Made by a program: the position numbers and the translations under genes | Shown: positions 15,117 through 34,907 of the stretch, in pieces | Numbering within the stretch: the first letter of the stretch is position 1 | Layout of the letters: each line of letters opens with the position of its first letter | The notes under the pieces: model-generated | The model's database searches: none | Seen by the model: the letters and a program-made list of their open reading frames with translations, nothing else | Told to the model about the DNA's origin: nothing | NCBI GenBank assembly: GCA_034189385.1 | Contig: JAXHVD010000013.1 | Coordinates: forward strand, 1 to 64,000 | DNA: 64,000 nt | Reading direction: 5' to 3' | From: Thermodesulfobacteriota bacterium | GTDB taxonomy: Bacteria > Desulfobacterota > Desulfobacteria > Desulfobacterales > C00003060

Positions 15117-15926
15117 ATGTTCGACAGCTACTCCAGTACGAAACCTGTTGCGTCTCTGACCAGCTTCATGGAGACCCTCGGCCGCAGCCTCATCCGGTTT
15201 ATCGAGGAGTTTGGGCTTATCCTATTCATGTTGTCGTCCGCACTCCTCTGGATGGTGCGCCCGCCCCTGCGCGTTCGGGCCATCTTCAAGCAGATGGAGT
15301 TTGTGGGCGTGAACTCCTGGCTTGTTGTCCTTCTGACGGGCATCTTCACGGGCGGTGTGCTGGCGCTGCAGGCGTTCCATGGATTTCGCCTGTTTAGCGC
15401 CGAGAGCCTGGTGGGGTCCACGGTGGCCCTGGCCATCACCCGGGAACTAGGCCCAGTTCTCACCTCTCTCATGGTGACAGGGCGGGCCGGTTCTGCCATG
15501 GCTGCAGAATTGGGGACCATGCGTGTAACCGAGCAGATTGATGCCCTTTATGCCATGGCATGCGATCCGATTAAGTACCTGGTCGTGCCCCGTATTATTG
15601 CTGGGGTGCTGATGCTCCCAGTGCTGACGATTATTGCAGATTTTGTCGGAATTATAGGGGGGTATTTGGTCGGAGTAGGGCTGTTGAACATCAACTCAGG
15701 TATCTACGTGGCCAAAATGATAGAGATTGTTGAGTTGGATGACATCTTCAACGGCCTTGTCAAGGCCGCTTGTTTTGGGCTCATCCTATCGCTGGTGGGT
15801 TGCTACAAAGGCTTTTATGCCACGGGCGGGGCTGAAGGCGTGGGGAAAGCCACGACACAGGCCGTGGTCATATCTTCTGTGTCTATTTTGATCAGCGACT
15901 ACTTCTTGACGGCAGCTATGTTTTGA
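15117..15926 (+). CDS. mlaE: MlaE family ABC permease
   Basis: RELGPVLTSLMVTGRAGSAMAAELGTMRVTEQIDAL; GGAEGVGKATT. Confidence 0.95.
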   Translation: MFDSYSSTKPVASLTSFMETLGRSLIRFIEEFGLILFMLSSALLWMVRPPLRVRAIFKQMEFVGVNSWLVVLLTGIFTGGVLALQAFHGFRLFSAESLVGSTVALAITRELGPVLTSLMVTGRAGSAMAAELGTMRVTEQIDALYAMACDPIKYLVVPRIIAGVLMLPVLTIIADFVGIIGGYLVGVGLLNINSGIYVAKMIEIVELDDIFNGLVKAACFGLILSLVGCYKGFYATGGAEGVGKATTQAVVISSVSILISDYFLTAAMF

Positions 15927-16096
15927 TGAAATCGCCAAAAGTCCCCTTTGCTCTTTCCAGGAGTATTTGCGCCTGTGGGCTTGAGAAGAGACGGGGGCAC
16001 TTAGAATGTTCAGTTGAAATGCTAGGACTCGGGCCGACGCACTCACATCGACAACCGCTTCATGTTTTTTGCAAAAGACCTTGTGCAAAACGGTCA
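15923..16096. mobile_element. MITE-like element, family C, within mla operon
   Basis: Starts TTGATGAAATCGCCAAAAGTCC, ends GACCTTGTGCAAAACGGTCA; shares TTTGCGCCYGTGGGCTTGAGAAGAGA with 63421-63687. Confidence 0.7.
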
Positions 16097-16223
16097 TATG
16101 TTGATGATGTGAGTTTGGCAGGCCATTGAGATTTGAGCGTTGCAGAAGGTTGGGGGAAGGTCCTTGTGTGGAGAGGGTGGGGCACATGCCCCATAAGAGG
16201 ATAGAGCAACGGGAGCCGTTCTT

Positions 16224-16973
16224 GTGATCAAGCTGCTTGATGTGTGCAAGGCGTTCAAGGGCCACAAGGTTTTAGATGGAGTGAACCTTGAGGTTGAGCC
16301 TGGCAAGATCACTGCCATTATTGGGCAAAGTGGCGGGGGGAAAAGCGTGCTGCTCAAGCACATGATCGGACTGATAAGACCGGACAGGGGGGAGGTCCAG
16401 GTGGAAGGCATCAACATTTCTCGCCTGAATGACCGCGAACTCAATGAAGCCAGGAAGGACTTTGGCATGCTCTTTCAAGATGCTGCCTTGTTTGATTCCA
16501 TGACGGTGGGGGAAAATGTGGCCTTCCCGCTCCAGGAGCATACCCGGCTTCCGAAGGGGGAGATTGAAGAGATCGTCCAGCAGAAACTCCTTCAGGTGGG
16601 CCTAAAGGACGTGGCCCACAAGATGCCTTCGGAGTTGAGCGGTGGCATGCGAAAACGCGTAGGGCTTGCCCGGGCCATTGCCCTTGACCCCAAGATCATC
16701 CTTTTTGACGAGCCCACTACCGGCCTTGATCCCATCATGGCCGATGCCATTGACCGCCTCATTGTGGAGACCCAGAGACAGACCAGGGCCACCTGTGCGG
16801 TGATCAGCCATGACATTGCGTCCACCTTTAAGATTGCCCACACGGTAGCCATGCTCTATGAGGGCAAGATTGTTGAAATCGGCTCACCTGCATCTGTACG
16901 GCAGTCGAAGAACCCGGCTTTACAGCAGTTTATACAGGGAAAGGCCGAAGGGCCCATTCACATAGGGTGCTAA
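16224..16973 (+). CDS. mlaF: MlaF family ABC ATP-binding protein
   Basis: GQSGGGKS, LFQDAALFDS, LSGGMRKRVGLARA, FDEPTTGLDP. Confidence 0.95.
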   Translation: MIKLLDVCKAFKGHKVLDGVNLEVEPGKITAIIGQSGGGKSVLLKHMIGLIRPDRGEVQVEGINISRLNDRELNEARKDFGMLFQDAALFDSMTVGENVAFPLQEHTRLPKGEIEEIVQQKLLQVGLKDVAHKMPSELSGGMRKRVGLARAIALDPKIILFDEPTTGLDPIMADAIDRLIVETQRQTRATCAVISHDIASTFKIAHTVAMLYEGKIVEIGSPASVRQSKNPALQQFIQGKAEGPIHIGC

Positions 16974-16979
16974 GAGGTC

Positions 16980-18371
16980 ATGACAAAGCTTAGTATTGAG
17001 GCCAAGGTAGGTTTCTTTGTGCTTCTCAGCATCTTGGCGCTGGCTTATATGTCCATGAGAATAGGCGGGTTCAAATACGCGGCTCACGGGGGGTATGAGT
17101 TGTATGGCTATTTTGACTCTGCCGAGGGCCTCGTTCCAGGAGTACCGGTGGAAATAGCTGGCGTTGAGGTGGGTCGGGTAAAGGAGATCGCCCTGGAAGA
17201 TGGCAAGGCGAAGGTGACTCTCGAGTTCAACCCTGATGTGACAATCGGAGAAGATGTGGAAGCCGCCATTCGCACCAAAGGCGTGCTGGGGGACAAATAC
17301 GTGGAAGTGATCTTGGGTGCGTTGGACGCCGCTCCATTGAAGCCAGGTGGCCGTATTGGGCGAACCATTTCTCCAGCCAACATAGACACCTTGTTGAAAC
17401 AACTGAGCGCCATTGGCAAGGACCTTCAGGGGATTACAGGTTCCCTATCAGGAGTCCTGGGCGGAGAGGCGGGGGAGGAGTCTGTGATGCTCATTGTCCA
17501 GAACCTTCGAGATCTGGCTACGACCCTTAACAAGACAGTGCAGGGAAACCAGGAAAACATCAACCGGATACTGGACAACCTCACGGTCTTTTCCAGGGAT
17601 CTCAGAGAGATAAGCAGCACGAACAAGGAAGGTTTGAGAGAGGTTGTAGCCAACTTCAGAAAGCTTTCACAGGACCTGGGAGAGACGATCGTGGCGGTGA
17701 AGCGGATTACGGAAAAAATTGACCGGGGTGAAGGCACTATCGGTAAGCTCATACAGGAAGATGAAACGGTGGATAACATCAATACCGCCCTCATAAGTCT
17801 CAATGATTATCTCGAAGAAAAGGACAGGTTTCGTACCTATGTTGACTACCGGGGAGAGTATCTCTGTGACAGTCAAGACGTGAAGTCATACGTGTCTCTT
17901 ACGATTCAACCCAAAGAGGACAAGTACTACATGTTGCAGGTGGTGGACGACCCGGCTGGAGATATTGATGAAACGGTGACCACCAAGACGGTGAACGGGA
18001 TTTCTACTACGGAACACAGGGAAAAGATCGATAAAGACAAGCTCAAGTTCTCTGCCCAGATTGCAAAACGTTACTATGATCTGGGACTTCGAGCAGGAAT
18101 CTTCGAGTCAAAAGGCGGGATAGGTGCTGACTACTACTTCCTGGACGACAGCTTGGTGCTGTCTATGGAGGCTTTTGATTTTGACGAAGACGACAAGCCC
18201 CACTTGAAGTTCAAGGTAGACTTTACCCCATTTCAATACTTGTACATGACCGCAGGCTTTGACGATTTCGTAAGCGATGATGACAAGGAATCTTTTTTTG
18301 TGGGAGGAGGCCTCCATTTTTCCGATGAAGACTTAAAGACCTTGCTTCAGGGGGCTCCCATTCCCAGGTAG
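16980..18371 (+). CDS. mlaD: MlaD/MCE family protein with long helical region and beta-rich C-terminal domain
   Basis: N-terminal TM anchor, MCE motif (GL..G.PV..AGVEVGRV; GVLGDKYVE), GEGTIGKL. Confidence 0.88.
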   Translation: MTKLSIEAKVGFFVLLSILALAYMSMRIGGFKYAAHGGYELYGYFDSAEGLVPGVPVEIAGVEVGRVKEIALEDGKAKVTLEFNPDVTIGEDVEAAIRTKGVLGDKYVEVILGALDAAPLKPGGRIGRTISPANIDTLLKQLSAIGKDLQGITGSLSGVLGGEAGEESVMLIVQNLRDLATTLNKTVQGNQENINRILDNLTVFSRDLREISSTNKEGLREVVANFRKLSQDLGETIVAVKRITEKIDRGEGTIGKLIQEDETVDNINTALISLNDYLEEKDRFRTYVDYRGEYLCDSQDVKSYVSLTIQPKEDKYYMLQVVDDPAGDIDETVTTKTVNGISTTEHREKIDKDKLKFSAQIAKRYYDLGLRAGIFESKGGIGADYYFLDDSLVLSMEAFDFDEDDKPHLKFKVDFTPFQYLYMTAGFDDFVSDDDKESFFVGGGLHFSDEDLKTLLQGAPIPR

Positions 18372-18526: not shown

Positions 18527-19948
18527 ATGGAAACAAAGAACATAGAGCGATTAAAGCCTTTTAAGCTCGTCAAGTACTTCACCTTTACCAGCCTCATTGT
18601 GATCCTTGTGGGTACCTTGGCCCTGTCTATGGTGATTGCCCGTCGGGCCGAGACAGTGCTCATAAAGAAGAGTGAAGAGTATGCGCTGCTCATGGCCGAA
18701 AACCTGAACCATCAGGTCTTTGTCCAGTTTATTATCCCTGCGGCCCTTCAATTTGGACAAGTCATTCAACTCAGAAATGAAGTGCTCTTCGAACGTTTGG
18801 ACCAGGTGGTAAGGAATACACTTCACAGTTTTAGTGTGGAGAAGGTCAATATCTTTGCCAAGGAAAAGAATGTGATCTTCTATAGTTTCGACAAAGAGCT
18901 CCTGGGAGAAGAAGACTTGGGGGGAAGGGACTATCTGCAAGCCCTGGAGGGCGAGTCAAGCTCTAAGCTGATTCGAAAAGGCGGCTTCTGGAGGATGCTT
19001 GTCGGGGTTCCCAAAGAAAGGAAGCTTCGCACCTATGTCCCCTTGAGGGCAGAAAAGCCCCTGTCGAATATTGAAGGTCCCATACTCGGGGTTTTTGAAA
19101 TTGTCCAGGACCTTTCCGGGGACTACAGGACCATCGCCCAGTTCAAGCTGAGGGTCATTGTTACCTCCATTGCGATTATGGGGCTCCTCTTTGTTGTGCT
19201 GCGCCACATTGTGAAACGGGGCGAGAAGATCATTGAAAAACGGGCCGAGGAACGGCTCTTGCTGAAACAGAAATTGAACCAAGCCGAGCATCTTGCCCGC
19301 CTTGGTGAAATGGTCGCGGCCGTATCTCACGAGGTCCGAACGCCTCTTGGGATTATTAGCAGCACGGCAGAACTCCTGAAGCGGAAGTTAAACCGCACGG
19401 ATTCCCAGGATCAGCTTGCAGATGTGATCGTCGAAGAGGCGAACCGTCTGAATGGCATTGTCTCGGATTTCTTAAACTTTGCACGACCGGTCACACCAAA
19501 CCTGATACCTTGTAACGTGGCAAGCGTCCTTGATAAGAACCTAAGTTTTCTGGCCCCGCAGATCAACAGCCAGGGCTACAAGATTGAGAAGCGATTTGCC
19601 GACGAGGTGCCTGACATACAAGCGGACCCCGGAATGCTCTACCGGGCCTTTTTGAACATCTTGGTGAATGCCATGCAGGCAATGCCCAAAGGGGGCACCA
19701 TAGATATTGAACTGGACAACAGGGCTGACACGGTGGCCATCGTGTTCTCCGATGGAGGAAAGGGGATTCCTGCGGAAGCTCTGGACAAGATCTGGGATCC
19801 ATTTTTTACGACAAGAGACAAGGGAAGTGGCTTGGGCCTGGCCATTGTGAGAAAAATAGTGGAGGGCCATGGTGGCACGGTCCACATAGAAAACGGCAAG
19901 GACCGTGGGGCCCAGGTCACGGTTACCTTGCCCATAGGGAAGGTGTGA
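18527..19948 (+). CDS. Membrane sensor histidine kinase (NtrB-like)
   Basis: Two TM helices; H-box VSHEVRTPL; N, G1 (DGGKGI), F (PFFTT), G2 (GSGLGL) boxes. Confidence 0.95.
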   Translation: METKNIERLKPFKLVKYFTFTSLIVILVGTLALSMVIARRAETVLIKKSEEYALLMAENLNHQVFVQFIIPAALQFGQVIQLRNEVLFERLDQVVRNTLHSFSVEKVNIFAKEKNVIFYSFDKELLGEEDLGGRDYLQALEGESSSKLIRKGGFWRMLVGVPKERKLRTYVPLRAEKPLSNIEGPILGVFEIVQDLSGDYRTIAQFKLRVIVTSIAIMGLLFVVLRHIVKRGEKIIEKRAEERLLLKQKLNQAEHLARLGEMVAAVSHEVRTPLGIISSTAELLKRKLNRTDSQDQLADVIVEEANRLNGIVSDFLNFARPVTPNLIPCNVASVLDKNLSFLAPQINSQGYKIEKRFADEVPDIQADPGMLYRAFLNILVNAMQAMPKGGTIDIELDNRADTVAIVFSDGGKGIPAEALDKIWDPFFTTRDKGSGLGLAIVRKIVEGHGGTVHIENGKDRGAQVTVTLPIGKV

Positions 19949-20019: not shown

Positions 20020-21378
20020 ATGGAAACCATCCTTGTTGTTGATGATGAGAAAAACTACCTTGTGGTGTTGAGTGCCTTTCTCACAGAAGAGGGCTACGAG
20101 GCCCTGACAGCAGAAGAAGGGCAGGAGGCCCTTAAGATTCTGGAGTCTGCAGACATTGATCTTGTGCTCACAGACATGAAGATGCCCTCCATGGATGGCA
20201 TTGAGCTTCTAAGGCGGATTAGGGAAAAGTCGCCTGACCTGCCAGTGGTTGTAATGACTGCTTACGGGACAGTTGAAAAGGCTGTTGAGGCCATGCAACA
20301 AGGGGCTTTCAACTTCATCCAAAAGCCCTTTCAGAACGAAACACTCAAGCAGATCGTAGACAGTGCTGTGGCCACCTACAGGGTCGTTAAGGAAAACAGG
20401 CGCCTGGTTCAGGCCTTGGAAGACCGCTATCGCTTTGACAACATTGTAGGGAAAAGCAAGCCCCTGCAGGATGTGTTTGATATTGTACAGAAGGTGGCCC
20501 ACACTAAGGCTACGGTATTGATCACAGGCGAAAGCGGCACGGGCAAGGAGCTGATTGCCAAGGCCATTCATTTTAACAGTCCTCGTCGCGACAAACCCTT
20601 TGTGGCCGTCAGCTGTGCAGCACTGAGCGAAACCTTACTAGAGAGTGAGCTTTTTGGCCATGAAAAGGGGGCCTTCACCGGGGCCATTGCCGTGAAAAAA
20701 GGGCGGTTCGAGCTGGCAGATGGAGGGACTCTGTTTCTGGATGAGATCGGTGAAGTGCCGGTGGCAGTTCAGGTGAAACTCCTTCGAGTGCTGGAAGAGA
20801 TGAGTTTTGAGCGTGTAGGGGGTGCCAAGACCATTGCTGCAGACGTGCGTTTAATCGCAGCTACCAACAGGGCGCTCAAGCAAGAGGTGGAACAGGGCCG
20901 TTTTCGAGAGGACCTCTATTTCCGCCTAAATGTGGTTCACATTGAACTGCCCCCGCTGAGGGAGCGGGCAGAGGACATTCCACTCCTGGCAGCCCACTTT
21001 CTGGAGAAATATGGGGGGGAGGCAAACCGAGGAGAGATGACTGTTTCGCCTGAGGCCATGCGCTTTTTGTACAACCACCGCTGGCCCGGAAATGTGCGGG
21101 AGCTCGAGCATGCCATTGAGCGGGCTGCCCTTCTGAGCAGGAGTAACGAAATTGCCCTGGACGACCTCCCCAAAGACCTTGTGGGTTTTTCAGATCTTGA
21201 AACGCCGATAGACTGGCAGAAGCTGTCAAGTCTTCCTGAAACGTTGGATGCCATTGAAAAGAGACTGATTCAAAAGGCCCTGGCCCTGTCTAACAACGTC
21301 CAGTCTCGGGCAGCCAATCTCCTTGGCATTCCCAGGGCCAATTTGCAGTATCGCCTAAAGAAGCACAATATCGTGTGA
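20020..21378 (+). CDS. Sigma54-dependent response regulator (NtrC/AtoC family)
   Basis: Intact receiver (DD, D in LTDMKMP, T, KP), [23 protein letters not shown]-terminal HTH. Confidence 0.95.
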
Positions 21379-21461
21379 AGTGTTCTGCCGAGGTTGGCAA
21401 AACAAGAATTGCTGTTTTATTTCAACAATTTAAATCCAGCAGGCGGAGTGTCAGGCCTAAC

Positions 21462-21617
21462 GTATGAAAAGTTGGCATTCGCTGTTATTGTTCACAAATT
21501 CCGTTGGTTGGATGGCACCAGAAAAGAGCTTGTATAAAAAGTTGGCACCCCACCCTAGTACATGTAATAGCAGCAACTTAAGGAGCATCAGGCAAAGCCC
21601 TGTATGAAAAGTTGACT
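21462..21617 (+). promoter_or_regulatory. Three direct repeats GTATRAAAAGTTGRC with exact 70-bp period (putative enhancer sites)
   Basis: Copies start at 21462, 21532 and 21602. Confidence 0.6.
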
Positions 21618-21791
21618 CACAGACAACAAGGGCACGGTCCAATCTCCCCTGCCTGGACCGCGCCGGCATCGGCATGAATGGAGAGATGCAGGATGTTTGG
21701 TTCTTCTATTCGCTGGGAAATAAAAAGGTTAGCCGCTTTTCCCCCAGTGGCTCCCGTTCAAAAGTCAAATGTTCCGAGGAGTATTGAAGGC

Positions 21792-21807
21792 TGGCATCGT
21801 TGTTGCA
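21792..21807 (+). promoter_or_regulatory. Sigma54 -24/-12 promoter
   Basis: TGGCATCGTTGTTGCA, GG-N10-GC spacing correct. Confidence 0.75.
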
Positions 21808-21817
21808 TAACGATAAG

Positions 21818-21899
21818 GGAAAGCGCTGTGAAGAGACTTCTTCATTCGCTTTCCTCCTGTTAGAGGCTAATCGCATGTTGCGATTAGCCTTTATTTTTT
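21818..21899 (+). ncRNA. Putative sigma54-dependent small RNA (~80 nt, two hairpins)
   Basis: Predicted +1 (21818) is the first base of hairpin GGAAAGCG...CGCTTTCC with inner TGAAGA/TCTTCA; CCTCCT motif; ends in intrinsic terminator. Confidence 0.6.
21864..21899 (+). terminator. Intrinsic terminator
   Basis: Perfect 12-bp stem AGGCTAATCGCA/TGCGATTAGCCT followed by TTATTTTTT. Confidence 0.85.
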
Positions 21900-21923
21900 G
21901 TGCGCCCGGCAGGGTCCACTTAC

Positions 21924-21955
21924 AAAAAAAGGCCGCCAGTACTGGCAGCCTTTTT
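21924..21955. terminator. Bidirectional intrinsic terminator (serves apbE)
   Basis: A7-GGCCGCCAGTACTGGCAGCC-T5. Confidence 0.75.
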
Positions 21956-21974
21956 CCTTGAAAAAACACTCTAT

Positions 21975-23027
21975 CTATGCGGGCCATCCTTTTGAGAGGA
22001 CACGATTCTTCTGGTCCCTCAAGATGAGACACTCTGTGCCCGGAAGACCATCAATAAAACGCTTTGCCGCTTCGGGCTCAAGGACAAAGGCCGTTGTAGA
22101 GAGGGCATCTGCGTCCATGACATTGGAGGCCATCACGCTTACGCTTGAGGTTTGTCTGGGCGAAACCCCTGTTTTGGGATTCACAATGTGGTGAAAGAGC
22201 TTCTCTTTGTCGAAATAGACCTCATAATTGCCGGAGGTGGCGACAGCCCCATTGGCCATCTTGACCATGTCTACATAGGGGCCTTCTTTGTCAGGGTTTT
22301 GAATCCCCACCTTCCAGGGTGTGCCGTCCTTTTTGCCGCCCACTGCACGAATATCCCCGCCAGCGTTGATGAGGGCATGTTGGATACCGGCAGCCCTGAT
22401 TATTTCCGCTGCCTTGTCAATAATGTAACCCTTGGCAATACCGTCTAGCGTAATCCCCATGCTCTCCTTCTTAAATCGGATTGATTTTCCGTCAAATGAC
22501 ATGGCACGGGAATCGACTAGGTCCAGCACTTTATCCAGTTCGGCTTCCGATGGAGCCCGCCCAAGGACAGCAAAATCCTTTTTGTACAAGTCCACTAATG
22601 GTTGGACAGTGATGTCAAAGGCCCCATGGCTGAGTTCATGAAAGTAGAGGGACCGGGCCACCACTTCGGCAACCTCAGGCGGCATGTCAAGGAGCATCCC
22701 CTCTTTATTAAGAGCACCAATAGGTGAGTCGGATCGGTAGCGGTCCAAGAGCTTGGTGAGCCGATCCATTTCTTCAAAGGCCATTCCAATGACCTGTTCC
22801 GCTTGGATCTTAGATGGGTGCAAGGCCGTCATAGCTACAAAGGTACCCATTCCCATTTTTGCGTCGGTGACCTTGTGGAGCTTTCTGTTGAAAGCCACGC
22901 TTTCCGAAATGGGCAGTAAGCCGCCGCTCGCAACCCCTATACCCAAGATGCCGGATATTTTTAGAAAATTCCTTCGATCCATGGTGTGCCGACTGTGCTC
23001 TCTTTCAGACATGGCTTTCTCCTCCAT
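21975..23027 (-). CDS. apbE: FAD:protein FMN transferase ApbE with Tat signal
   Basis: DRRNFLK twin-arginine signal; MGT, GAFDITV, LDGIAKGY, NAGGD, ATSGNY, HHIVNP, ADALST. Confidence 0.92.
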   Translation of the reverse strand: MEEKAMSEREHSRHTMDRRNFLKISGILGIGVASGGLLPISESVAFNRKLHKVTDAKMGMGTFVAMTALHPSKIQAEQVIGMAFEEMDRLTKLLDRYRSDSPIGALNKEGMLLDMPPEVAEVVARSLYFHELSHGAFDITVQPLVDLYKKDFAVLGRAPSEAELDKVLDLVDSRAMSFDGKSIRFKKESMGITLDGIAKGYIIDKAAEIIRAAGIQHALINAGGDIRAVGGKKDGTPWKVGIQNPDKEGPYVDMVKMANGAVATSGNYEVYFDKEKLFHHIVNPKTGVSPRQTSSVSVMASNVMDADALSTTAFVLEPEAAKRFIDGLPGTECLILRDQKNRVLSKGWPA

Positions 23028-25893: not shown

Positions 25894-26304
25894 TTACTTC
25901 GCCTTTACCGCGATCTTTCGGGGAACGGCCTTCTCGGCTTTTGGCAATACCAACCTCAGAACCCCGTCTTGGAGTTCTGCCTCAATCTTTGCCTGGTCAA
26001 TGGTGTCTGAAAGGGAAAACTGACGTACATACCTTCCCGTCCTGTATTCCTTCAGAATTTCTGTTTCACCCGCAGTTTCAGGCCTCTCAACCTCGCCTGA
26101 CAGGGTGATGACATCTTCACGCAGGTCAATGTTCAAGTCACCTGCCTTTACACCTGGCATATCGGCAAGGAGCGTGATACCGGTCTGTGTTTCAAAGATG
26201 TCAACGGCAGGCTTGAAAGTGAGTCCTGGCCTTGTCTGCTCGGCGGCACTGGCCACTTCCCGCTTCTCTCTTGCTTCTAGGGCTTTTGCTTCGGCCTCAG
26301 TCAT
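25894..26304 (-). CDS. Hsp20/alpha-crystallin small heat shock protein
   Basis: PAVDIFE, ADMPGV, AELQDGVLRLVLPK. Confidence 0.92.
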   Translation of the reverse strand: MTEAEAKALEAREKREVASAAEQTRPGLTFKPAVDIFETQTGITLLADMPGVKAGDLNIDLREDVITLSGEVERPETAGETEILKEYRTGRYVRQFSLSDTIDQAKIEAELQDGVLRLVLPKAEKAVPRKIAVKAK

Positions 26305-26340
26305 GGTCTTTCCCTCCCTTCCAATAGACTTGCATGGCTC

Positions 26341-26802
26341 TCAGCCTGCTTTCACAGTGATCTGTTTCGGCTTTGCTGCTTCTGCCTTGGGAAGCACCAC
26401 AGTCAAGACGCCATCAGTACAGCTGGCTTCCACCTTCTGTGTATTGATGTGACCTGGCAGCGTTAGCATTCTGCTGAATTTGCCAGCGTTCCGCTCTCGC
26501 CTGTGGTACTTAGCGTCTTCTCCTTCGGCAAGGATCTTTCGCTCCCCAGAGATGGAAAGGCTTTCTCCTGTTACAGAGATGTCCAGCTCATCCGCTTTCA
26601 TTCCAGGAAGCTCCGCCCGGACGTAATAGTTGTCACTGTCTTCTGTCACATTGGTCAGTGGAAATACTCCCGCTCCAGGCATCCCGGGCGTAGCGCCCGT
26701 CAGACCGTCGAAGAGCCTATCCATCTCTTTTCTCATCCTGTCCAAATCTGTTGGAACACGCCAGCCCCATGCAGGCAAGCCAAATCCTCTTATGATTGCC
26801 AT
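26341..26802 (-). CDS. Hsp20/alpha-crystallin small heat shock protein
   Basis: FPLTNV, AELPG, YHRRER, DGVLTVVLPK; start moved to MAIIR after AAGGAGG. Confidence 0.92.
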   Translation of the reverse strand: MAIIRGFGLPAWGWRVPTDLDRMRKEMDRLFDGLTGATPGMPGAGVFPLTNVTEDSDNYYVRAELPGMKADELDISVTGESLSISGERKILAEGEDAKYHRRERNAGKFSRMLTLPGHINTQKVEASCTDGVLTVVLPKAEAAKPKQITVKAG

Positions 26803-27001
26803 AGCTGATCCCTCCTTTCTAATAGTTGTACCACTGAGTACGTTCAACTAGAAACTTGGACTGCTTCGACAATGTTTTTAAACACTTGGGAAACGCTTGT
26901 CGACGGATAAACTAAAGATAGCTAATCTGTAATGCATGTTTTTCGCTTGTCAAGTGGATGAATCCAGCTGGGAAGAAGAAAGCTCACATACAAGATCCCT
27001 T

Positions 27002-27958
27002 TTAGGCTAAGGGTGGCCTTTGGTGGTTCAGACACAAGTCGACCAACTCATCGATTCGTGCCTCGCCAGCACACATGACCGTGTCAGCGCCTCCCCAGTA
27101 GATCTTCACAGATCTGTCTTCTTCCGCCACCGCACCGCAAGTGAAGACCACATTATGGACGTATCCCGTAACCTCCCAGGGATCCTCGGGCTGGAGAATC
27201 CACTCATCAGCCACACCAAGGATGCGTGAAGGGTCGTCTAAGGCGTGAAGGGCCAGACCGAGGCGATAGACAGATCCGTCCATGGTCTTGAAAACCCCGT
27301 GGAAGATGTTGAGCCATCCTTGGTCCGTTTTCATGGGTGTGGCCCCCGGGCCGATCTTCATCTCGTCCCAGTGGTAGGGTAGCGGCTTAATCAACACCCT
27401 GGAATCGCCCCAGTGTATGAGGTCCCGGGAATAGGATATCCAAATGGACCAGGGAGATATATTCGAATGGGGGCGGTCAAGTCGGGCGTAGCGGCCATCA
27501 AACTCGGTAGGAAAGATGACGACGTTACGATGATCGGCCTCTGTAATGAGGGCAATCCGTTCCACCGTTCTGAAATTACTGGTTTTGGCCAGACCAATCC
27601 TCACGCCGTGGCGCGAGTAGGCACTGTACGTGATGAGGTAGGTGTCTTCCATGAGACAGATGCGAGGGTCCTCAACACCAAATTCCTCATAGGTGGCAAA
27701 AGGCTCCTTTGTCGACGGCGTCATGAACGGCTCAGGGTGAACCCGAAATTGATAGCCATCGTCGCTTTCCGCCAAACCGATGATGGACCGCCCATTTCGC
27801 AAATGAGACCTGAAAAGCATCGTGTACCGGCCTTCATGTTTGACCACGCCCGCGTTGTGAACCGTTTCTACCGGGAACGGCACATCAGACTTGGTGAGAA
27901 TGGGATTCCCCTTGTATCGCTTCACAATAGACTCTTTGGATCCAGTTACCATCCTCAT
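27002..27958 (-). CDS. GH130-like glycosidase/phosphorylase
   Basis: NPIL, HNAGV, GVEDPRI, RNVVIFP, KIGPG, NVVFTCG, YWGGAD. Confidence 0.85.
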   Translation of the reverse strand: MRMVTGSKESIVKRYKGNPILTKSDVPFPVETVHNAGVVKHEGRYTMLFRSHLRNGRSIIGLAESDDGYQFRVHPEPFMTPSTKEPFATYEEFGVEDPRICLMEDTYLITYSAYSRHGVRIGLAKTSNFRTVERIALITEADHRNVVIFPTEFDGRYARLDRPHSNISPWSIWISYSRDLIHWGDSRVLIKPLPYHWDEMKIGPGATPMKTDQGWLNIFHGVFKTMDGSVYRLGLALHALDDPSRILGVADEWILQPEDPWEVTGYVHNVVFTCGAVAEEDRSVKIYWGGADTVMCAGEARIDELVDLCLNHQRPPLA

Positions 27959-28042
27959 GTGTCCTTTCCTGGCACTGCCGTCCCACTAATCTCCTCTGTG
28001 GACGGCGAAAAAATGAGGTCTTCTCTGCTGGTCAGACCTCAG

Positions 28043-29080
28043 CTAGATGGGCCGAGAGAGCGTGTCCCCCCTCTTTTTGAGGACCTTTTTGTAGACCAAT
28101 AGATATTTTTCCACCATGCGATCGACAGTGAAACGCTCTTCAACCGTCTTGCGGCAGGAAGCCCTGTCAATGTCCGTTATTCTTGCCACACAACGAATAG
28201 CATCATCCACGCTGGCAACCAGAAATCCGTTCTCTCCGTCGTCTATGATCTCCCCCATACTTCCGCGATTGATAGCTATAGGGGGCGTTCCACATGCCAT
28301 GGACTCAATGACTGAAAGGCCGAAGGGTTCGTTGAAGTTGATAGGATGAAGCAGTGCAAGGGCATTGCCCATAAGCCTATCCCTTTTGATGGGGTCGGCG
28401 CTGCCCACATAGGCGACACTGCTACCATCCACGTAAGGTTTCACGTGGTCATTGAAGTAATCTTCGTCCTGGACAATTCCCGCTATGATCAGTCTCTTTT
28501 CGCAGGCCTTGGCAATCTCAATGGCCTCTTCTGTCCCCTTGTCCGGATGAATGCGACCGAAGAAGAGAAGGTAGTCTTCTGGTTGAGACTGAAACGTGAA
28601 GCTGCCAAGGTCTATGCCATGATGGATAGTAGCGACATAGTCCAAGTCGGGGGCTCTGTCTGCATCGCTTATCGATACGTAGAAGACCTTCCCATTGTAT
28701 TTCCGGTAGACTGGCAGGATTTCTTGTGAAGAGAACCCATGGATGGTTGAGACAACGGGCGTGTTCACCAGGCTGCTGTACGTGAGGGGGAGGAAATCAA
28801 AATGATTGTGTATGAGGGCAAACTCATCGGCCCTCTCAAAGACCTCGGATACATGGAGGCACTCCCAGACCTTTGGGTCTATGGTCCTCTCCTCTTCGTA
28901 GCCTTTCCTGCACACTGCACGGAGTCTCCCTTTGGTTTTGGAGTCCGCCGTAGCAAAGAGGGTTACATTCACACCTCGAGCCACGAGCCCCTCGGTCAAC
29001 AGAGAGACAACGCTTTCCCACGGCCCATAGTGTCTGGGAGGCGTACGCCAAGCAATGGGTGAAAGCATACCTATACGCAT
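28043..29080 (-). CDS. Glycosyltransferase family 4
   Basis: PPRHYGPWE, FFGRIHPDKG, EPFGLSVIESMACGTP. Confidence 0.9.
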   Translation of the reverse strand: MRIGMLSPIAWRTPPRHYGPWESVVSLLTEGLVARGVNVTLFATADSKTKGRLRAVCRKGYEEERTIDPKVWECLHVSEVFERADEFALIHNHFDFLPLTYSSLVNTPVVSTIHGFSSQEILPVYRKYNGKVFYVSISDADRAPDLDYVATIHHGIDLGSFTFQSQPEDYLLFFGRIHPDKGTEEAIEIAKACEKRLIIAGIVQDEDYFNDHVKPYVDGSSVAYVGSADPIKRDRLMGNALALLHPINFNEPFGLSVIESMACGTPPIAINRGSMGEIIDDGENGFLVASVDDAIRCVARITDIDRASCRKTVEERFTVDRMVEKYLLVYKKVLKKRGDTLSRPI

Positions 29081-30042
29081 GGTCCTTGTGAACTAATGGC
29101 ACTGTGTTTCTTGAGCCAGTTCAGCAGCCCGATAAGGCTAGCCGAAGCCAGGGCAAGACAGCTGTCAGCCCCGCCGTAATAGAGCCTGACCTCGTCGTCC
29201 GCCGCGACCCAACCGCAAGGGAAAACGACTTTGTCCACATCCCCAAACAACTCATATGGCTCCCGGGGTGCGAATATCCACTCATTTGAACGGGCAATAA
29301 TCCGACAGGGGTCTTCCATGTCAAGCAATGCCAGGCCCAGTCGATAGATGGCCCCACTGGCCGTGGTTCGGACTCCATGGTACATGATCAGCCATCCTTC
29401 TTCTGTCCTCAGCGGAGGGGGCGAGAGGCCGATCTTGTTGGCGTCCCACCATGCCCCTTCTCTGGCCGGAATCAATATGCGATGGCCGCCCCAGTGCTTA
29501 AGGTCGGGGGAAAAGGAGATCCAGATATGGGCACCAAGACCTTGAACGGCGGATACCGGCCGATGGATCATGGCCCAGCGGCCCTCGAATTGGACAGGGA
29601 ACAAGGCCGCATCCTTGTCCTCTGGTGGCATCACAGGACCAAGGCGTTTGAAGTATTCAAAATCACTGGTGGTGGCCAGGGAGACCATGGGACCGCCCCG
29701 TGAATAGGCTGTGTAGGTTATGACCCACTCCTGCAAGTCTTCCAGCCAAGTAATCCTCGGGTCTTCTATTCCCCAAATCTCTTCAGGGTGGGCTTCGGGA
29801 CTGGGTGCCATCGTTGGTCTACCATTGATGCGCCAGTCGCTGACCCCATCTTGGCTGCGAGCTACAGTCAAATGGGAAATGCCGGTTCTGCTTTCCACCC
29901 GCATCAGAAGTAATGTCTCCTCCCTGACCAAGGCCGCGCCGGCATTGAAGACCGTGTTAGCCGGATAGGGAATATCTCTTATCGTAATGATAGGATTGTT
30001 CGGATGACGTCGGAAAAGGTCCCTGAAGTGCGGGTTCTTCAT
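29071..30042 (-). CDS. GH130-like glycosidase/phosphorylase
   Basis: VFNAGA, GIEDPRI, DKDAALFP, HRP, KVVFPCG, YYGGAD. Confidence 0.85.
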   Translation of the reverse strand: MKNPHFRDLFRRHPNNPIITIRDIPYPANTVFNAGAALVREETLLLMRVESRTGISHLTVARSQDGVSDWRINGRPTMAPSPEAHPEEIWGIEDPRITWLEDLQEWVITYTAYSRGGPMVSLATTSDFEYFKRLGPVMPPEDKDAALFPVQFEGRWAMIHRPVSAVQGLGAHIWISFSPDLKHWGGHRILIPAREGAWWDANKIGLSPPPLRTEEGWLIMYHGVRTTASGAIYRLGLALLDMEDPCRIIARSNEWIFAPREPYELFGDVDKVVFPCGWVAADDEVRLYYGGADSCLALASASLIGLLNWLKKHSAISSQGPCV

Positions 30043-30052
30043 CTCTTTTCCT

Positions 30053-31297
30053 TCAGAATTCTGAATCCAAAACTACGCGTTGCCAAGACCGCTTAGATTC
30101 TCTGGCCAGTTCATAAGCCTGGAAATACTGCTTGGCCACTAGTTCCCAGGAGACCACCTCGTCCAGATAGCTTCTAAGATTCTCTCCAAGGGTAAGCCGC
30201 AGCCGTTCGTCGGTAGCCATGCGGATCACTTTCTGCCTGAGCATCTCTTTCGTGGTGAAGAGAAGACCCCCTTGGCTTTCGAGGGTCTGAGCTGTCAGGC
30301 CTTCCATGGGAGCAGTTGTAATATACGGTTTGTTCAAGGCGATGATCCGGGCCAATGTTCCTGACTGGGTCTCGTCTATGGATGGCAGGACGATGAAGTC
30401 GCATATAGACATAATCTTGTAATAAGTATCGCCGCGGGGGATGAATTCATAGTAATGAGCAATGCCCTTTTTCTGGAGTTCCAAGGCATGGGACTTCCAG
30501 TTTTCATATTGGGCGCGGTGGTTGGGATCCCGGATAGTGCCGGCCGCGAGCAAATCCCACTCCTCGCCATTCAGGCCTCTAATCTCTTCGTGGATCTCTT
30601 CCCACATGTGGAGCAAGATGTCCCAGCGCTTGTTGGACTGAATCCAGCCGATCATGCCGACCACATGATCCGCAAGTGCTGCTTTGTCTAATCCCAGTTC
30701 TCTTCTCAGGGCTGGTATTTCATGGACACCCCAACGTTTGTCTGGCCGGGCGCCATGGGGAACCACCATGACATTGCGAGGAGTCTCGCCCTCTTCTTCG
30801 GGAAAATGCCAGTCCAACCGCCATTTCTGGTAATGACATTTCAGCAGGACAAGGTCGCTTTTCTGACATAGCCGGAAAACAAAGTCCTGCTCAGTCTCTC
30901 TGAGCCTGCCGTGAATAGTGTGGGGTTCCACCACAATGGGATAATTGCCAATGGCGTCAAGAAGCGTGAGAAAACCCTCATTGTTGTCCCCCACACCGTC
31001 TTCGTCCACGTATTCGTAGAGGCCGTACTCATGCTCCAAATGAACCGCATAAGGATTGAGTTCGTCGATCTTTTGGGCCACAGGCTTCCACCAGTCACTG
31101 CGGCTCATGTCAATCAAGGGAAAAACGTCCTCCCCCCGACCGTCTGTGTGGCTGATAACCATGACTTTTCTGTCTGGATTAGCCTTTTGGATGAACTCTC
31201 TCGCCTCCTCTGTGAAGGTGGCGATTCCACAAAGCCTTGGTGGGTAAGAACTCACCATAACGAGAGGACTGTTGTTCCCTCTGCGCATTGGTGCCAT
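30053..31297 (-). CDS. GT4-like glycosyltransferase (divergent)
   Basis: YPPRLCGIATF, HEYGLY, VPHG, QSGTLA; paralogous to the N-terminus of the next gene. Confidence 0.75.
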   Translation of the reverse strand: MAPMRRGNNSPLVMVSSYPPRLCGIATFTEEAREFIQKANPDRKVMVISHTDGRGEDVFPLIDMSRSDWWKPVAQKIDELNPYAVHLEHEYGLYEYVDEDGVGDNNEGFLTLLDAIGNYPIVVEPHTIHGRLRETEQDFVFRLCQKSDLVLLKCHYQKWRLDWHFPEEEGETPRNVMVVPHGARPDKRWGVHEIPALRRELGLDKAALADHVVGMIGWIQSNKRWDILLHMWEEIHEEIRGLNGEEWDLLAAGTIRDPNHRAQYENWKSHALELQKKGIAHYYEFIPRGDTYYKIMSICDFIVLPSIDETQSGTLARIIALNKPYITTAPMEGLTAQTLESQGGLLFTTKEMLRQKVIRMATDERLRLTLGENLRSYLDEVVSWELVAKQYFQAYELARESKRSWQRVVLDSEF

Positions 31298-31321
31298 ATT
31301 TAAGGGTCTCCTCTTTGTCTT

Positions 31322-33604
31322 CTAAGCCTTCATCACAACCGTTGCCTCAGCAAGGGAATGCAAGTGCAATAGGGAAAGCAGCCATGCTAATGTAGATTCT
31401 GCACCTTGATTCAGATTGGGGCCGTCAGCCGTCAAGCCGTCGCAACACCCTGCACTCCTGTGGTCATACAAAGGAGCATTGAGGTCATTCCGGCCCAGGA
31501 ACCAGTCAAAGCAGCGTCGAGCCTCCTCAATCCATTTCTCATCTTTTGTGATCTTGTATGCCTCAATGCAGGCTTCAATCATGTTTTGAGCCTCGATGGG
31601 CTGCTGGTCAAACCTGGCCCGCTCTCCATTCTGGACAAACCACCCGTGATTTCCAATGGGAGTAAAATGCCCTCTGGAATCCGTCTGCATCTCAATGAGC
31701 CAATTTAGAGAGTGCAGCCCCGCCTCGATCATGTCGCTTCGGTGCAGCCAACGTCCTGAGAGAAGCATTGCTTGGGGAATCTTACCATTGGCATAGTTGA
31801 GGCTGTCTTCAATCCAGGGCCAACCATCAGAGGTATTCATCTGAAACAGCTCAAACAAATTCCTGGCCAAAGTCTCACGTCCTCGCCGGACCTCGCTGTC
31901 CCCTCCAAAGCGCCTGAGATACGCATGAATCCCAACCAAGCCGAACGCCCATGCCCTGGGTGATCGGAAATGGACCATGGCCGACAGGGCCCTCTCAAAG
32001 AGGTTCATGGCTGCTCCCTTAAAGCTCTGTGAATTTGACAGTGCCACCGCCATGCCCAATCCCCAGATTGCCCGCCCGTGGCAATCTTCGGTCCCTTGTT
32101 CTTCCAGCCAGCGCCGGTCGTAGCCCATGAAGTTCCGAAAACGTCCATTGGCCTCGTTGAAGGCATGGTACAAAAAGCCCAAGTATCTGCAGGCCAGGTC
32201 CGTTAGCTCACTCTCATTAGGGAGCAGATCCCGAGCCATCATGACGACGATAAGTGCTCGGGCGTTGTCGTCGGTGCAGTAGCCGTGGAAGCGATCCGGC
32301 ACCATGAACTTCGCATGCTGCAATATCCCAACATCATCTGTTAACAACTTCAGGTGATCCAGTTTCACCTGGGGCAAGTCGACCGGAATAGCATCCAGCG
32401 TCTTGGTATAGAATGCAACCCTAGGCCCTTTTTGTCTGTCGTCCCCGACTTCCACAAATATTTCTATGTAGCGGCGAGCCACTTCTTTCCAGATCATGCT
32501 CCGGCAAAAGCTATAGGCCCGCTTACGCATGGCATGACATTCAAATTCGTTGTCTAAAAGATCCACTACTTGGGCAGACAAGGCATCCGCATCTTGGAAC
32601 GGAACAATGCGTCCTCTCCCGTCATCAAGCATTTCTTCGGCGTACCAGTATGGTGTGGATATGGTCGCCTTGCCCGCACCCAGGGCGTAGGCGAGGGTGC
32701 CAGAGACGATCTGTTCTCTGTTCACATAGGGCGTCACATATATGTCTGCGGCTCCCAGAAATTCACACAGTTCTTTGAGGTTCACAAATCTGTTATGGAA
32801 GATGACGTGGCTGTCCACGCCCCGCTCCCGTGCCCGAAGCTGCAAGGAAAGGCGGTAGGCCTCTCCCGCTTCTCTTTTGACATTGGGATGTGTTGCTCCC
32901 AAAACGATATAAGCCACTTCCGCATGTCTATTTACGATGGCCGGCAAGGCGTCTATCATGTGTTCAATCCCCTTGCCAGAAGAAATGAGACCGAAAGTGA
33001 GGAGCACCTTTCGTCCGGCAACTCCGAATTGGTCCTTGTAGTAATTGGGATCAACGAATGGAACATCCGGGATGCCGTGATGGATTAACGCAATCCTTTC
33101 TTCTGCCACGCCGTAAACTTCTTTCAGCATCTCCTTCGCTTTATAGCTCATGACCACCAAGCGGTCAGAGAGGTCTCCCAACTCTTCTACGATGGTCTTT
33201 TGTCCCAGATCAGGTGACGCCACCACAGTGTGCATTGTGGTTACGACGGGCATGCGCAGGTTGCGGAGGAGTTCCAAAATGTGGCTGCCGTGCTTGCCGC
33301 CAAAGATGCCGAACTCGTGTTGAAGGCACACGATGTCCACTTGGTTCATATTCAGAAAGTCAGCTGCTAGTCGGTAATCGTCAAGATTCTTATAGTCAAC
33401 TTCAAAGCGTACCCGGGGGGGATAACGGTACCCCTCAGGCACATCGTTCATGACCACCGCCCAGCACTCCATATCGGGGCCCTCGATCGAAAGGGCTTCT
33501 AAGAGATCGGCTGTAAACGTGGCAATGCCACATTGCCTTGGGACGTAATTGCCAATCAGGGCGACTGTGGTTGGGGTGTCAGGGTGCAGTCCAGTCGGGT
33601 TCAT
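31322..33604 (-). CDS. GT4 glycosyltransferase fused to six-hairpin glycosidase-like domain
   Basis: PRQCGIATF, QHEFGIFGG, SGTLAYA; C-terminal GYCTDDNARAL, FDQQPIE, WFLGRN, NQGAEST. Confidence 0.85.
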   Translation of the reverse strand: MNPTGLHPDTPTTVALIGNYVPRQCGIATFTADLLEALSIEGPDMECWAVVMNDVPEGYRYPPRVRFEVDYKNLDDYRLAADFLNMNQVDIVCLQHEFGIFGGKHGSHILELLRNLRMPVVTTMHTVVASPDLGQKTIVEELGDLSDRLVVMSYKAKEMLKEVYGVAEERIALIHHGIPDVPFVDPNYYKDQFGVAGRKVLLTFGLISSGKGIEHMIDALPAIVNRHAEVAYIVLGATHPNVKREAGEAYRLSLQLRARERGVDSHVIFHNRFVNLKELCEFLGAADIYVTPYVNREQIVSGTLAYALGAGKATISTPYWYAEEMLDDGRGRIVPFQDADALSAQVVDLLDNEFECHAMRKRAYSFCRSMIWKEVARRYIEIFVEVGDDRQKGPRVAFYTKTLDAIPVDLPQVKLDHLKLLTDDVGILQHAKFMVPDRFHGYCTDDNARALIVVMMARDLLPNESELTDLACRYLGFLYHAFNEANGRFRNFMGYDRRWLEEQGTEDCHGRAIWGLGMAVALSNSQSFKGAAMNLFERALSAMVHFRSPRAWAFGLVGIHAYLRRFGGDSEVRRGRETLARNLFELFQMNTSDGWPWIEDSLNYANGKIPQAMLLSGRWLHRSDMIEAGLHSLNWLIEMQTDSRGHFTPIGNHGWFVQNGERARFDQQPIEAQNMIEACIEAYKITKDEKWIEEARRCFDWFLGRNDLNAPLYDHRSAGCCDGLTADGPNLNQGAESTLAWLLSLLHLHSLAEATVVMKA

Positions 33605-33722
33605 GAAACGTTACCTTGTTGAGGTGTTGCAGGGAGCTCTGATGCAGGGACATGCGTGAGCCGCCCCTTGATTCGAGTCTTCAGTTCTATCCTTGGAGCC
33701 CATTGCCTTGTTTCTGTTTCTT

Positions 33723-34907
33723 CTATGTATACCTCATGTGCGACCGAATTTCATCAAAAAAGGGCGTGTCGTTGTGTTCAACACAATGGGCGGCATAGAT
33801 ATACATTGCCGCGGACCACGTTTGCCAATCTTGTCCGCAAGGCTCCCTGTCCTGTGCCCGAAGGTATTCGTTAAAACCGAAATCCACCGTGGCTTCCCGG
33901 GCCGGTCGGACGAGCCTTGTCAGGACCTCCAGCTTCCTTCTGGCCAATCGCCTTTTGCCCGCAGCCACGACCGCCGCAACATAAAGTCCACATATAAAAG
34001 GCCATAATCCGCCATTGTGGTACTCCCCCGGACGGTTGAACTTGGCGTACCTGGGCCGCCAGTCCGGGTCTTGTTCTTCAATAAACGGGAGAAGACTGGG
34101 CGGAAGATCCAAGGCAAGCTTCCCTTTGGCTCGCATGGCGGCGCATTCGGCTTCAATCCATGAGATAATCTTCTGTGCTCGTGAGGGTGGGGCAATTCCT
34201 GAAAGGATGGCCAGGCTGTTACCCAACAAATCAAATCGCTCACTGCTGTAAAGCTTATAGGACCATAGGGCATAGTAAGGCTTATGACGAACGGCCAGTC
34301 CTTCATGAACGTGCCGGTGTTTGGTGTCTGCCGTGATGGTGAAGCGCCCCATCAGCCGGCGAAGCAGATCGGCCTTTTGGTATCTCCCGTAAAGGCATAA
34401 GTAGCAATAGACTACTGTATTAACGAACAGGCCGAAGCCTGGCACCCATTGCTCGTCCCGCCAGTCGCTGGTGGGCAGCTGGGCCACCATGACACGGTCG
34501 GAGGGACTCTGGTAATCCATCCAGGTTAGTGCCTTTTCGGCGGCAACTTCCAAAAAATCTCGTTCGCCGGTGACCTTTCGAAAGACGGCCAGTGTCAGCA
34601 GGAAAAGGGGCGTGGTGTCGCTCGCACCACGATCTTCAGGATCGTGAACAAGGGATGGGATGTGGCCGTGCCGGCTCTGGTTTCTCGCCAGAGTTACCAA
34701 CACCCGACGGAGGGAACCCGTTAGCCGCTTGTCACCAGACACGAGCATCCCCAAACCTGCAATCATAAGGTCGCGGGTATATGGCTCAGGATAGCCCCAG
34801 CCGGCGGTCCTGGGCAGACCGCCATATGGTCCTCGCAGGTTATGAAGCAGCACATCTGTTGCCGCCTTTTTCGCCTCTTCAACCTTGTCTGGTAGCGGGT
34901 TGGACAT
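33723..34907 (-). CDS. Six-hairpin glycoside hydrolase (GH100 invertase / amylo-alpha-1,6-glucosidase-like)
   Basis: YTRD, DTTPLF, DWRDE, YHNGGLWP, FNEY, QTWSAA. Confidence 0.78.
   Translation of the reverse strand: MSNPLPDKVEEAKKAATDVLLHNLRGPYGGLPRTAGWGYPEPYTRDLMIAGLGMLVSGDKRLTGSLRRVLVTLARNQSRHGHIPSLVHDPEDRGASDTTPLFLLTLAVFRKVTGERDFLEVAAEKALTWMDYQSPSDRVMVAQLPTSDWRDEQWVPGFGLFVNTVVYCYLCLYGRYQKADLLRRLMGRFTITADTKHRHVHEGLAVRHKPYYALWSYKLYSSERFDLLGNSLAILSGIAPPSRAQKIISWIEAECAAMRAKGKLALDLPPSLLPFIEEQDPDWRPRYAKFNRPGEYHNGGLWPFICGLYVAAVVAAGKRRLARRKLEVLTRLVRPAREATVDFGFNEYLRAQDREPCGQDWQTWSAAMYIYAAHCVEHNDTPFFDEIRSHMRYT

Follow-up and report, generated by a model that had tools for sequence, protein, structure and literature searches.

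A conserved, probable small RNA gene with a sigma54-type promoter behind an NtrC-family activator gene in Desulfobacterota, predicted to act on porin mRNAs

The window analyzed here, a stretch of 64,000 nucleotides from a Thermodesulfobacteriota bacterium, contains a gap (21379-21975) between the gene of an NtrC-family activator and the convergent apbE gene. Judged by the names of homologues, the organism belongs with Desulfobacterales-like Desulfobacterota. The features in and around this gap are as follows.

18527-19948, plus strand: membrane sensor histidine kinase of 473 aa (HisKA and HATPase_c)
20020-21378, plus strand: NtrC-family sigma54 activator of 452 aa (REC-AAA+-HTH by Pfam domains; GAFTGA)
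21461-21477, plus strand: predicted activator site 1 (matrix score 21.6; located near -333 relative to the promoter within the genus)
21531-21547, plus strand: predicted activator site 2 (score 25.2; rank 1 of 22 matches in the genome)
21601-21617, plus strand: predicted activator site 3 (score 18.4; about -193 in the genus)
21792-21807, plus strand: sigma54 -24/-12 promoter, predicted +1 at 21818
21818-21899, plus strand: predicted small RNA of about 82 nt (from fold, conservation and no Rfam family)
21818-21854, plus strand: hairpin 1, masking the greater part of the seed; retained within the genus and variable beyond it
21828-21863, plus strand: GTG ORF of 11 codons
21837-21863, plus strand: seed, consisting of anti-codons 2-3, anti-AUG (CAT, 21843-21845), a spacer, anti-Shine-Dalgarno (21853-21858) and a flank
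21861-21899, plus strand: intrinsic terminator hairpin and U-tract (stem 21864-21875/21879-21890, 12-bp perfect)
21926-21955: apbE's own terminator

Three phased motifs had originally been claimed at 21462, 21532, and 21602, and they are indeed found there as elements of 16-17 nt placed 70 bp apart. Also, the sigma54 promoter proposed at 21792-21807 was confirmed, with its TGGCA and TTGC columns showing little or no variation across all of the 30 aligned copies from the genus, and so were the 12-bp perfect terminator (21864-21875/21879-21890) with a U-tract reaching 21899 and the separate terminator of apbE. The 88 nt starting at 21818 have a predicted folding energy of -42.7 kcal/mol (z -6.84), and none of 200 shuffled sequences was equally stable. 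The original prediction further placed +1 exactly on the first base of hairpin 1; this is correct in the window's genome, but hairpin 1 begins a few bases later in most relatives within the genus, and the match is a coincidence of the window's genome. Likewise, the anti-Shine-Dalgarno CCTCCT does occupy the proposed position (21853-21858) at the junction of the hairpins but is exposed only in part; the two C's at its start are paired in hairpin 1, and only 21855-21860 are unpaired in this region of the predicted fold. The window's genome has rpoN. When the window was searched with Rfam 15 (including Qrr, GlmY, Pxr, CrcZ, MicF, MicA, and RybB), no family reached its gathering threshold, and the ten weak matches, all far under gathering, fell on terminator-like stretches, which agrees with the proposal that the RNA is outside the known families. 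Eleven related loci also gave no Rfam family for the RNA, and the sole match there was a piece of a group II intron elsewhere. One metatranscriptome run held 3% of the words, and one 231-nt contig (depth 3.4) spans 21783-21876; because this contig includes promoter bases 5' of +1, it is uninformative on the predicted transcript.

In a blastn search of the 581-bp gap against 60 genomes, identity was almost confined to the stretch that opens with the first promoter base and closes with the U-tract (mainly query 413-520), and this confinement is the reason why we consider the island to be more than chance. Conservation of the promoter and hairpins in relatives, on which the original prediction was to stand or fall, is thus seen as an island of promoter, seed, and terminator in 31 of the 36 genomes of the same genus, and the five genomes without the island are 52-85% complete. 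The 30 aligned copies from the genus hardly differ in the -24/-12 boxes, in the terminator stem, or in a 19-nt core, of which two positions vary, and the spacer between these elements shows free variation. One copy in the genus (L036; G008:C190, about 16600-16731) has no sigma54 promoter, apparently by deletion, and its seed and terminator are intact.

Stem covariation had been suggested as a check, and it was positive for one of the two hairpins. Namely, the terminator has 11 pairs with 100% of the cells paired in 30 sequences, three of which pairs are changed on both sides in a compensatory manner, and in other families its sequence differs with the same fold; in contrast, the inner helix of hairpin 1 is 89% paired with no compensatory change, and several other families have a weak hairpin 1 or none. 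Pairing was counted on a hand-set structure, given that MAFFT/RNAalifold missed the inner helix of hairpin 1. A promoter hairpin proposed by MAFFT/RNAalifold was dismissed as spurious.

The seed read in reverse is SD-N7-ATG-AAG-AAG. The product of the gap might be a peptide instead of an RNA, encoded either by the 11-codon GTG ORF on the plus strand or by a 26-codon MKK ORF that is spelled by the seed on the minus strand behind a perfect Shine-Dalgarno sequence. Both small ORFs are present in the window, and the Shine-Dalgarno sequence and the ATG of the minus strand are ideally spaced. The plus-strand ORF, however, is without a start codon in 6 of the 31 copies from the genus and in 17 of the 22 other copies, and its length otherwise varies from 5 to 69 codons; the minus-strand ORF has 2-55 codons in 49 copies, and its ATG is missing in four more. 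Furthermore, the promoter and the U-tract both point along the plus strand, and the minus strand is shielded by the apbE terminator. A peptide product is therefore considered to be extremely improbable, and the GTG ORF, which is not conserved across the copies from the genus and from other families, does not appear to be the product, as had been originally proposed. The island has its own promoter and an intrinsic terminator with no conserved ORF, and the gap very likely holds a real and hitherto undescribed family of small RNA genes.

The cassette of promoter, RNA, and terminator is not limited to the genus. In other families of the order, it was found in 17 of 24 genomes, being located directly 3' of the activator in ten (found from 20 fetched loci) and elsewhere or at a contig edge in seven; it was not found in the remaining seven genomes (G038, G043, G044, G048, G049, G055, and G060), three of which (G048, G049, and G055) also gave no kinase match. 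Among the named loci, the cassette follows the activator in 12 of the 28 with enough downstream DNA, and the carriers include records of Desulfobacterium, Desulfobacula, Desulfotignum, and Desulfatiglandales. A covariance model matched 20 of 148 further genomes of the phylum, and seven of these matches are directly behind an orthologue of the activator; weak model matches in the kinase-less genomes G087, G105, G160, and G189 were not counted as members. The sensor region of the kinase was searched in 80 of the 148 genomes, comprising all of the 20 model positives and 60 of the 128 negatives, and gave full matches in 16 of the 20 positives versus 8 of the 60 negatives. Distant copies retain the C/U-rich anti-Shine-Dalgarno tract, and the anti-AUG is often absent from them. 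Six pattern matches (L252, L254, L257, L258, L268, and L271) were discarded as chance with no terminator downstream, and so was the one in G063. In G097 and G076, searches by model, site, and seed patterns found no cassette.

At E<=1e-60, 57 of the 61 genomes searched have the kinase itself as a single copy, either intact or split, and GAFTGA and the helix-turn-helix are kept across the orthologues of the activator. Look-alikes of sCache_3_2 give a lead, and only a lead, that the periplasmic region of the kinase may be sCache-like. A search of plasmids gave one distant kinase match. Upstream of the promoter, the motif is a quasi-palindrome of 16-17 bp resembling GTWCAAAWWTTTGWAC, which is repeated as two or three sites near -333, -263, and -193 in the genus and as one to three sites, mostly near -230 and -150, in other families; in 7 of the 22 non-genus copies, no upstream site was detected on either strand at the matrix threshold. 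Shuffled controls gave 0.006 matches per sequence with this matrix, which was trained on these same regions. By sequence, the three upstream motifs are thus a predicted but conserved activator-type site. When the entire genome was scanned, the window accounted for ranks 1, 2, and 8 of the 22 matches, and since the top-ranked sites of the genome are in the window, the RNA would seem to be the activator's main output. The upstream site also stays with copies of the RNA that are detached from the regulator genes, and a search with the site alone in five kinase-positive but model-negative genomes revealed a promoter, a C/U tract, and a terminator 75-110 bp downstream in three of them. A stretch at 21420-21432 of the window, which we take to be an IHF-like site with one mismatch, is located 5' of the first activator site, and no IHF-like site was found between the activator sites and the promoter in the window.

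Alternatively, the RNA might be driven by another sigma54 activator, to which the neighboring pair would be incidental; indeed, 7 of the 17 carriers from other families have the cassette at a distance from the pair or at a contig edge, and the upstream site resembles the published sites of DVU3381 (scores up to 10.8), whose helix-turn-helix nonetheless differs. We regard this possibility as highly improbable, because the cassette is directly behind the activator in the genus, in ten genomes of other families, in 12 of the 28 named loci, and in seven of the phylum matches, and because it was not found in the three of 24 other-family genomes that have no kinase. The neighboring sensor-regulator pair is hence likely to switch the RNA on, and the original proposal that a sigma54-type, trans-acting RNA of about 80 nt, outside Rfam, would be the output of the adjacent pair is supported by these comparisons. 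Identity of the pair with ZraSR was not adopted, as the DVU3381 sites fit only moderately and the DNA-binding domain is different, and the binding motifs of DVU0679, DVU0653, DVU1419, and DVU3305 do not fit the upstream site. As for the neighborhood, mlaE/mlaF/mlaD-like genes are located immediately 5' of the kinase in the window (15117-18371); mlaD is by the kinase in 10 of 29 short loci from the genus and in 2 of 36 named loci and is hence mostly a genus-level neighbor, which was not used as evidence. In the named loci, pilM-like (type IV pilus) genes are, judged by eye, a common divergent neighbor.

Non-coding RNAs as the output of sigma54 activators are not new to this phylum. According to the available text of PMC3333781 and PMC4641369, ncRNAs of D. 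vulgaris lie behind DVU0679 (Dv_sRNA2) and DVU0653, and others are under DVU1419 and DVU2359, with neither functions nor targets stated for them there; similarly, the accessible part of PMC4045070 describes two unannotated sigma54 small RNAs in D. alaskensis. While these are alike in layout, DVU0653, DVU0679, and DVU1419 differ from the present activator in both the DNA-binding domain and the binding sites (DVU0679, the activator for Dv_sRNA2, also having GAYTGS instead of GAFTGA), and DVU2359, compared by domain alone, differs in the DNA-binding domain. The kinase family, furthermore, reaches Desulfobulbus and Desulfovibrionaceae; D. vulgaris is not among the named rows of the 120 kinase matches listed. 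In a member of Desulfovibrionaceae (L323), a 459-aa regulator with GSFTGA is behind the kinase and agrees with DVU3220 of the DVU3220/DVU3221 pair in length, GSFTGA, and gene order, unlike DVU3305 (451 aa, GAFSGA), as far as these are described in the accessible sources. Judging indirectly from these features and from the distribution, the regulator pair in the window is probably orthologous to DVU3220/DVU3221 of D. vulgaris. In supplement file 2 of PMC4641369, the row of the DNA-binding domain that is near-identical to the L323 regulator carries the label DVU3305, and the labels in this file may thus be swapped. The distribution of the DVU3220 family includes Desulfobacterium, Desulfatibacillum, and Desulfotalea in the available text of PMC3333781, and there and in that of PMC4641369, the assignment of DVU3220, which has no motif, to the amt operon is based solely on a gel shift. 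DVU3220, DVU3221, and rpoN were scored essential in D. vulgaris but amt was not, as given in the accessible part of PMC10102598; in these sources, therefore, the sole proposed target of DVU3220 is non-essential though DVU3220 is listed as essential. In the one genome of Desulfovibrionaceae tested (G097), no RNA cassette was found by model, site, or seed patterns.

The seed (21837-21863) mirrors a complete ribosome-binding site followed by AUG-AAG, and over the 15 nt of 21849-21863 it is perfectly complementary to two porin leaders. Candidate translation starts in the window's own genome were ranked by the energy of the duplex with 21837-21862 and collapsed to 2024 genes (at least 150 aa, with an SD-like motif). 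The four genes at the top of the ranking all encode signal-peptide proteins ending in Phe and are all among the 26 OMP-like genes, a class defined by our own heuristic of a signal peptide and a terminal F/W (Fisher p 2e-8). These predicted targets are as follows.

G000 C1:5674-4511: rank 1, predicted porin
G000 C1:85748-87355: rank 2, resembles alginate-export barrels
G000 C1:89231-90355: rank 3, 83% identical paralogue of the top target
G000 C40:1067-2311: rank 4, matches Porin_4

The model of the top target (19-sequence alignment, pLDDT 80) matches DcaP (E 2e-14), OmpT, Omp38, and PorB, and this protein is thus predicted to fold as a general porin; a single-sequence fold of a 535-aa target was useless (pLDDT 30). 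When the costs of opening structures were included, OMP-like genes were at ranks 1, 2, 6, 7, and 16, with non-OMP genes at ranks 3-5, so that the separation was less clean. In the 36 genomes of the genus, a 22-nt seed pattern with at most one mismatch gave 39 matches, namely 31 RNA copies and eight starts of porin-like genes (8 of 8 non-RNA matches), and the reversed pattern gave none. With looser patterns, nine distinct non-RNA matches were obtained in other families, comprising four barrel-type proteins and five exported or membrane proteins other than porins; there was no porin among the seven non-RNA target matches in distant orders, and DESULF_POR1 was detected in only one of five distant genomes. 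The conserved seed is complementary to translation starts of porin mRNAs encoded elsewhere, and it is likely from this complementarity that the RNA represses porins. In one genome (G037; L087/L100, C1 617577-628566), the RNA shares its contig with the predicted target porin gene, which is located about 6.7 kb downstream, and in another (G047), a fragment of a group II intron (RF02001; L229:50-221) is near a porin gene.

It might also be considered that the RNA is real but works as a broad damper of exported proteins whose starts are of the strong AGGAGG-N7-AUG-AAR type, the porins coming first only as the most typical of them. Seeds that are C/U-rich and anti-Shine-Dalgarno commonly have many targets, cytochromes, a peroxiredoxin, and HU come directly below the four barrels in the ranking, and the non-porin matches in other families and distant orders would fit such a role. 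Porins nonetheless stand out even among the 38 genes with MK[KR] and a signal peptide, of which the ten OMP-like ones average -28.0 versus -20.5 for the rest (p 1.7e-4), and they do not do so through the strength of the Shine-Dalgarno sequence, given that none of the 26 OMP-like genes is above rank 56 by this measure. Together with the exclusively porin-like strict matches in the genus and the lineage-specific letters outside the Shine-Dalgarno sequence that match porins, these results make a broad damper unlikely, and repression of porins remains our preferred reading.

These letters are seen when the seeds are compared with the porin starts of their own lineages. All of the 14 porin starts from the genus pair better with seeds of the genus than with those of other families (-34.9 versus -26.1), and for eight of the nine porin starts from other families, pairing is equal or better with seeds of other families (-23.3 versus -19.6; one N-masked locus was dropped), although this co-variation is not a formal test because of the non-independence of the lineages and their differing G+C. 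The base 5' of the Shine-Dalgarno sequence is C in 14 of 14 porins of the genus, and its opposite is G in the RNAs of 29 of 30 relatives and of the window; in other families, A/T is found here on both the RNA and the porin sides. The second codon is AAG in 13 of the 14 porins and in all of the 31 seeds of the genus, and its third base agrees between RNA and porin in seven of nine genomes from other families, including two in which both are AAG. Perfect 27-nt matches between RNA and porin were found in G011 and G059, and in G059, whose porin is from another family, the Shine-Dalgarno sequence is altered on both sides. A porin of G046 matched the seed before the detached RNA of this genome was located. 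Within the genus, in contrast, the rank of the cognate seed varies from 1 to 24 out of 30, with the top place reached in just 1 of 11 genomes, and co-variation at the level of species is weak. Also, the one tested porin of G052 pairs weakly in spite of the RNA being present, and a porin of G060, where no RNA was detected, pairs at -25.5; in G038, also with no RNA detected, pairing of the two tested porins is weak, at -14 to -18, in line with expectation.

Taken together, we consider it quite probable that the gap encodes a conserved non-coding RNA that has a sigma54 promoter, is likely activated by the adjacent pair, and is predicted to shut porin translation without Hfq. The sensor would phosphorylate the activator upon a signal that is probably related to the envelope, as suggested by the predicted targets and the periplasmic sensor region. 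The activator would then bind the three conserved upstream sites and open the conserved sigma54 promoter, by which a predicted transcript of about 82 nt, ending at its own structurally conserved terminator, would be made. The open bases 21855-21860 are predicted to catch the Shine-Dalgarno sequence of a porin mRNA, hairpin 1 would unzip, and a duplex of 20-27 bp, for which complementarity and co-variation are seen, would cover the ribosome-binding site, AUG, and first codons. Loading of ribosomes would be blocked, and the levels of porins would drop, as suggested by RNAs of the MicA/RybB type in the available text of PMC4651636. Hfq (PF17209) was over the cut-off in none of the 37 genomes searched (0/1 and 0/36), with one sub-threshold match in G007, and such an unusually long duplex might make a chaperone unnecessary, which would fit this result. 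If the RNA instead paired with porin leaders in order to stabilize or process them, or titrated a protein or another RNA, its role would not be repression, and a stabilizing or titrating role is conceivable if the regulator pair is essential; given that the duplex sits directly over the Shine-Dalgarno sequence and start codon, and that the RNA has a single GGA with no repeats, unlike the CsrA/Crc sponges, we find this very unlikely and favor a block of translation. The protein sponges CsrB, RsmZ, and CrcZ repeatedly present GGA or A-rich motifs in open loops, and a sponge of this type was rejected here, as the only GGA is paired and unconserved.

MicF and ompF are a known pair of a porin-repressing small RNA and its target, and the seeds of MicA and RybB are short. 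In the accessible part of PMC4651636, MicA and RybB of E. coli are porin-repressing, sigmaE-driven, and Hfq-dependent, and they resemble the present RNA as short trans-encoded RNAs pairing, by prediction in our case, at the translation start of mRNAs for major outer-membrane proteins. The present RNA differs from them in having a -24/-12 promoter with activator sites, pairing of up to 27 perfect bases, no Rfam match, and no Hfq found. Its layout is rather that of Pxr of Myxococcus xanthus, which is located about 260-440 bp behind the sigma54 response regulator gene nla19, has a sigma54 promoter in a host without Hfq, and, with 108 nt in three stem-loops, controls development, its targets not being named there (PMC5568312, available text). 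The present RNA, however, has one or two hairpins instead of the triple stem-loop, and Pxr gave no match at E<=10 in the window. Among the 80 loci, records of myxobacteria other than M. xanthus match only the catalytic half of the kinase (residues about 238-471).

If our reading is true, porins are controlled by a sigma54-driven, Hfq-free RNA through long and near-perfect pairing in trans that is kept in step with the targets. As the promoter of the RNA is joined by predictions for its activator site, its sensor, and its specific targets, each step is directly testable, and a candidate binding motif and output are supplied for a regulator family that is probably DVU3220/DVU3221. Our literature search, which was light on subscription papers, met in the texts it covered neither a small RNA of these sulfate reducers that acts on a named target by base pairing nor a description of the present RNA. 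More speculatively, the most conserved sigma54 two-component system of Desulfobacterota (the DVU3220/DVU3221 family) might have as its main output this RNA family, a chaperone-free porin brake replacing the enterobacterial sigmaE-MicA/RybB arm, and loss of the brake might explain the essentiality of the kinase, the regulator, and rpoN in D. vulgaris; we hold this extension to be tentative and somewhat doubtful.

Several other stretches are worth recording. An apparent broken duplicate of the cassette (L296:950-1640; G000:C9, about 90640-91291) has two activator-type sites 68 bp apart, followed by an element of about 230 bp that is multi-copy (dozens of copies in four of five relatives) and then by a 3' end near-identical to the terminator of the RNA; it carries a stretch complementary to the seed and is a possible sponge. 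Another locus (L248; G026:C325:3445-3560, minus strand) has a sigma54 promoter, a C/U-rich anti-Shine-Dalgarno/anti-AUG tract, and a terminator with no upstream site of the RNA's type, and is possibly a second small RNA under another activator. Further along the window, two Hsp20-like genes (25894-26847) as well as a cluster of two glycosidase-like, three glycosyltransferase-like, and one glycoside-hydrolase-like gene (27002-34907) were noticed, all judged by eye.
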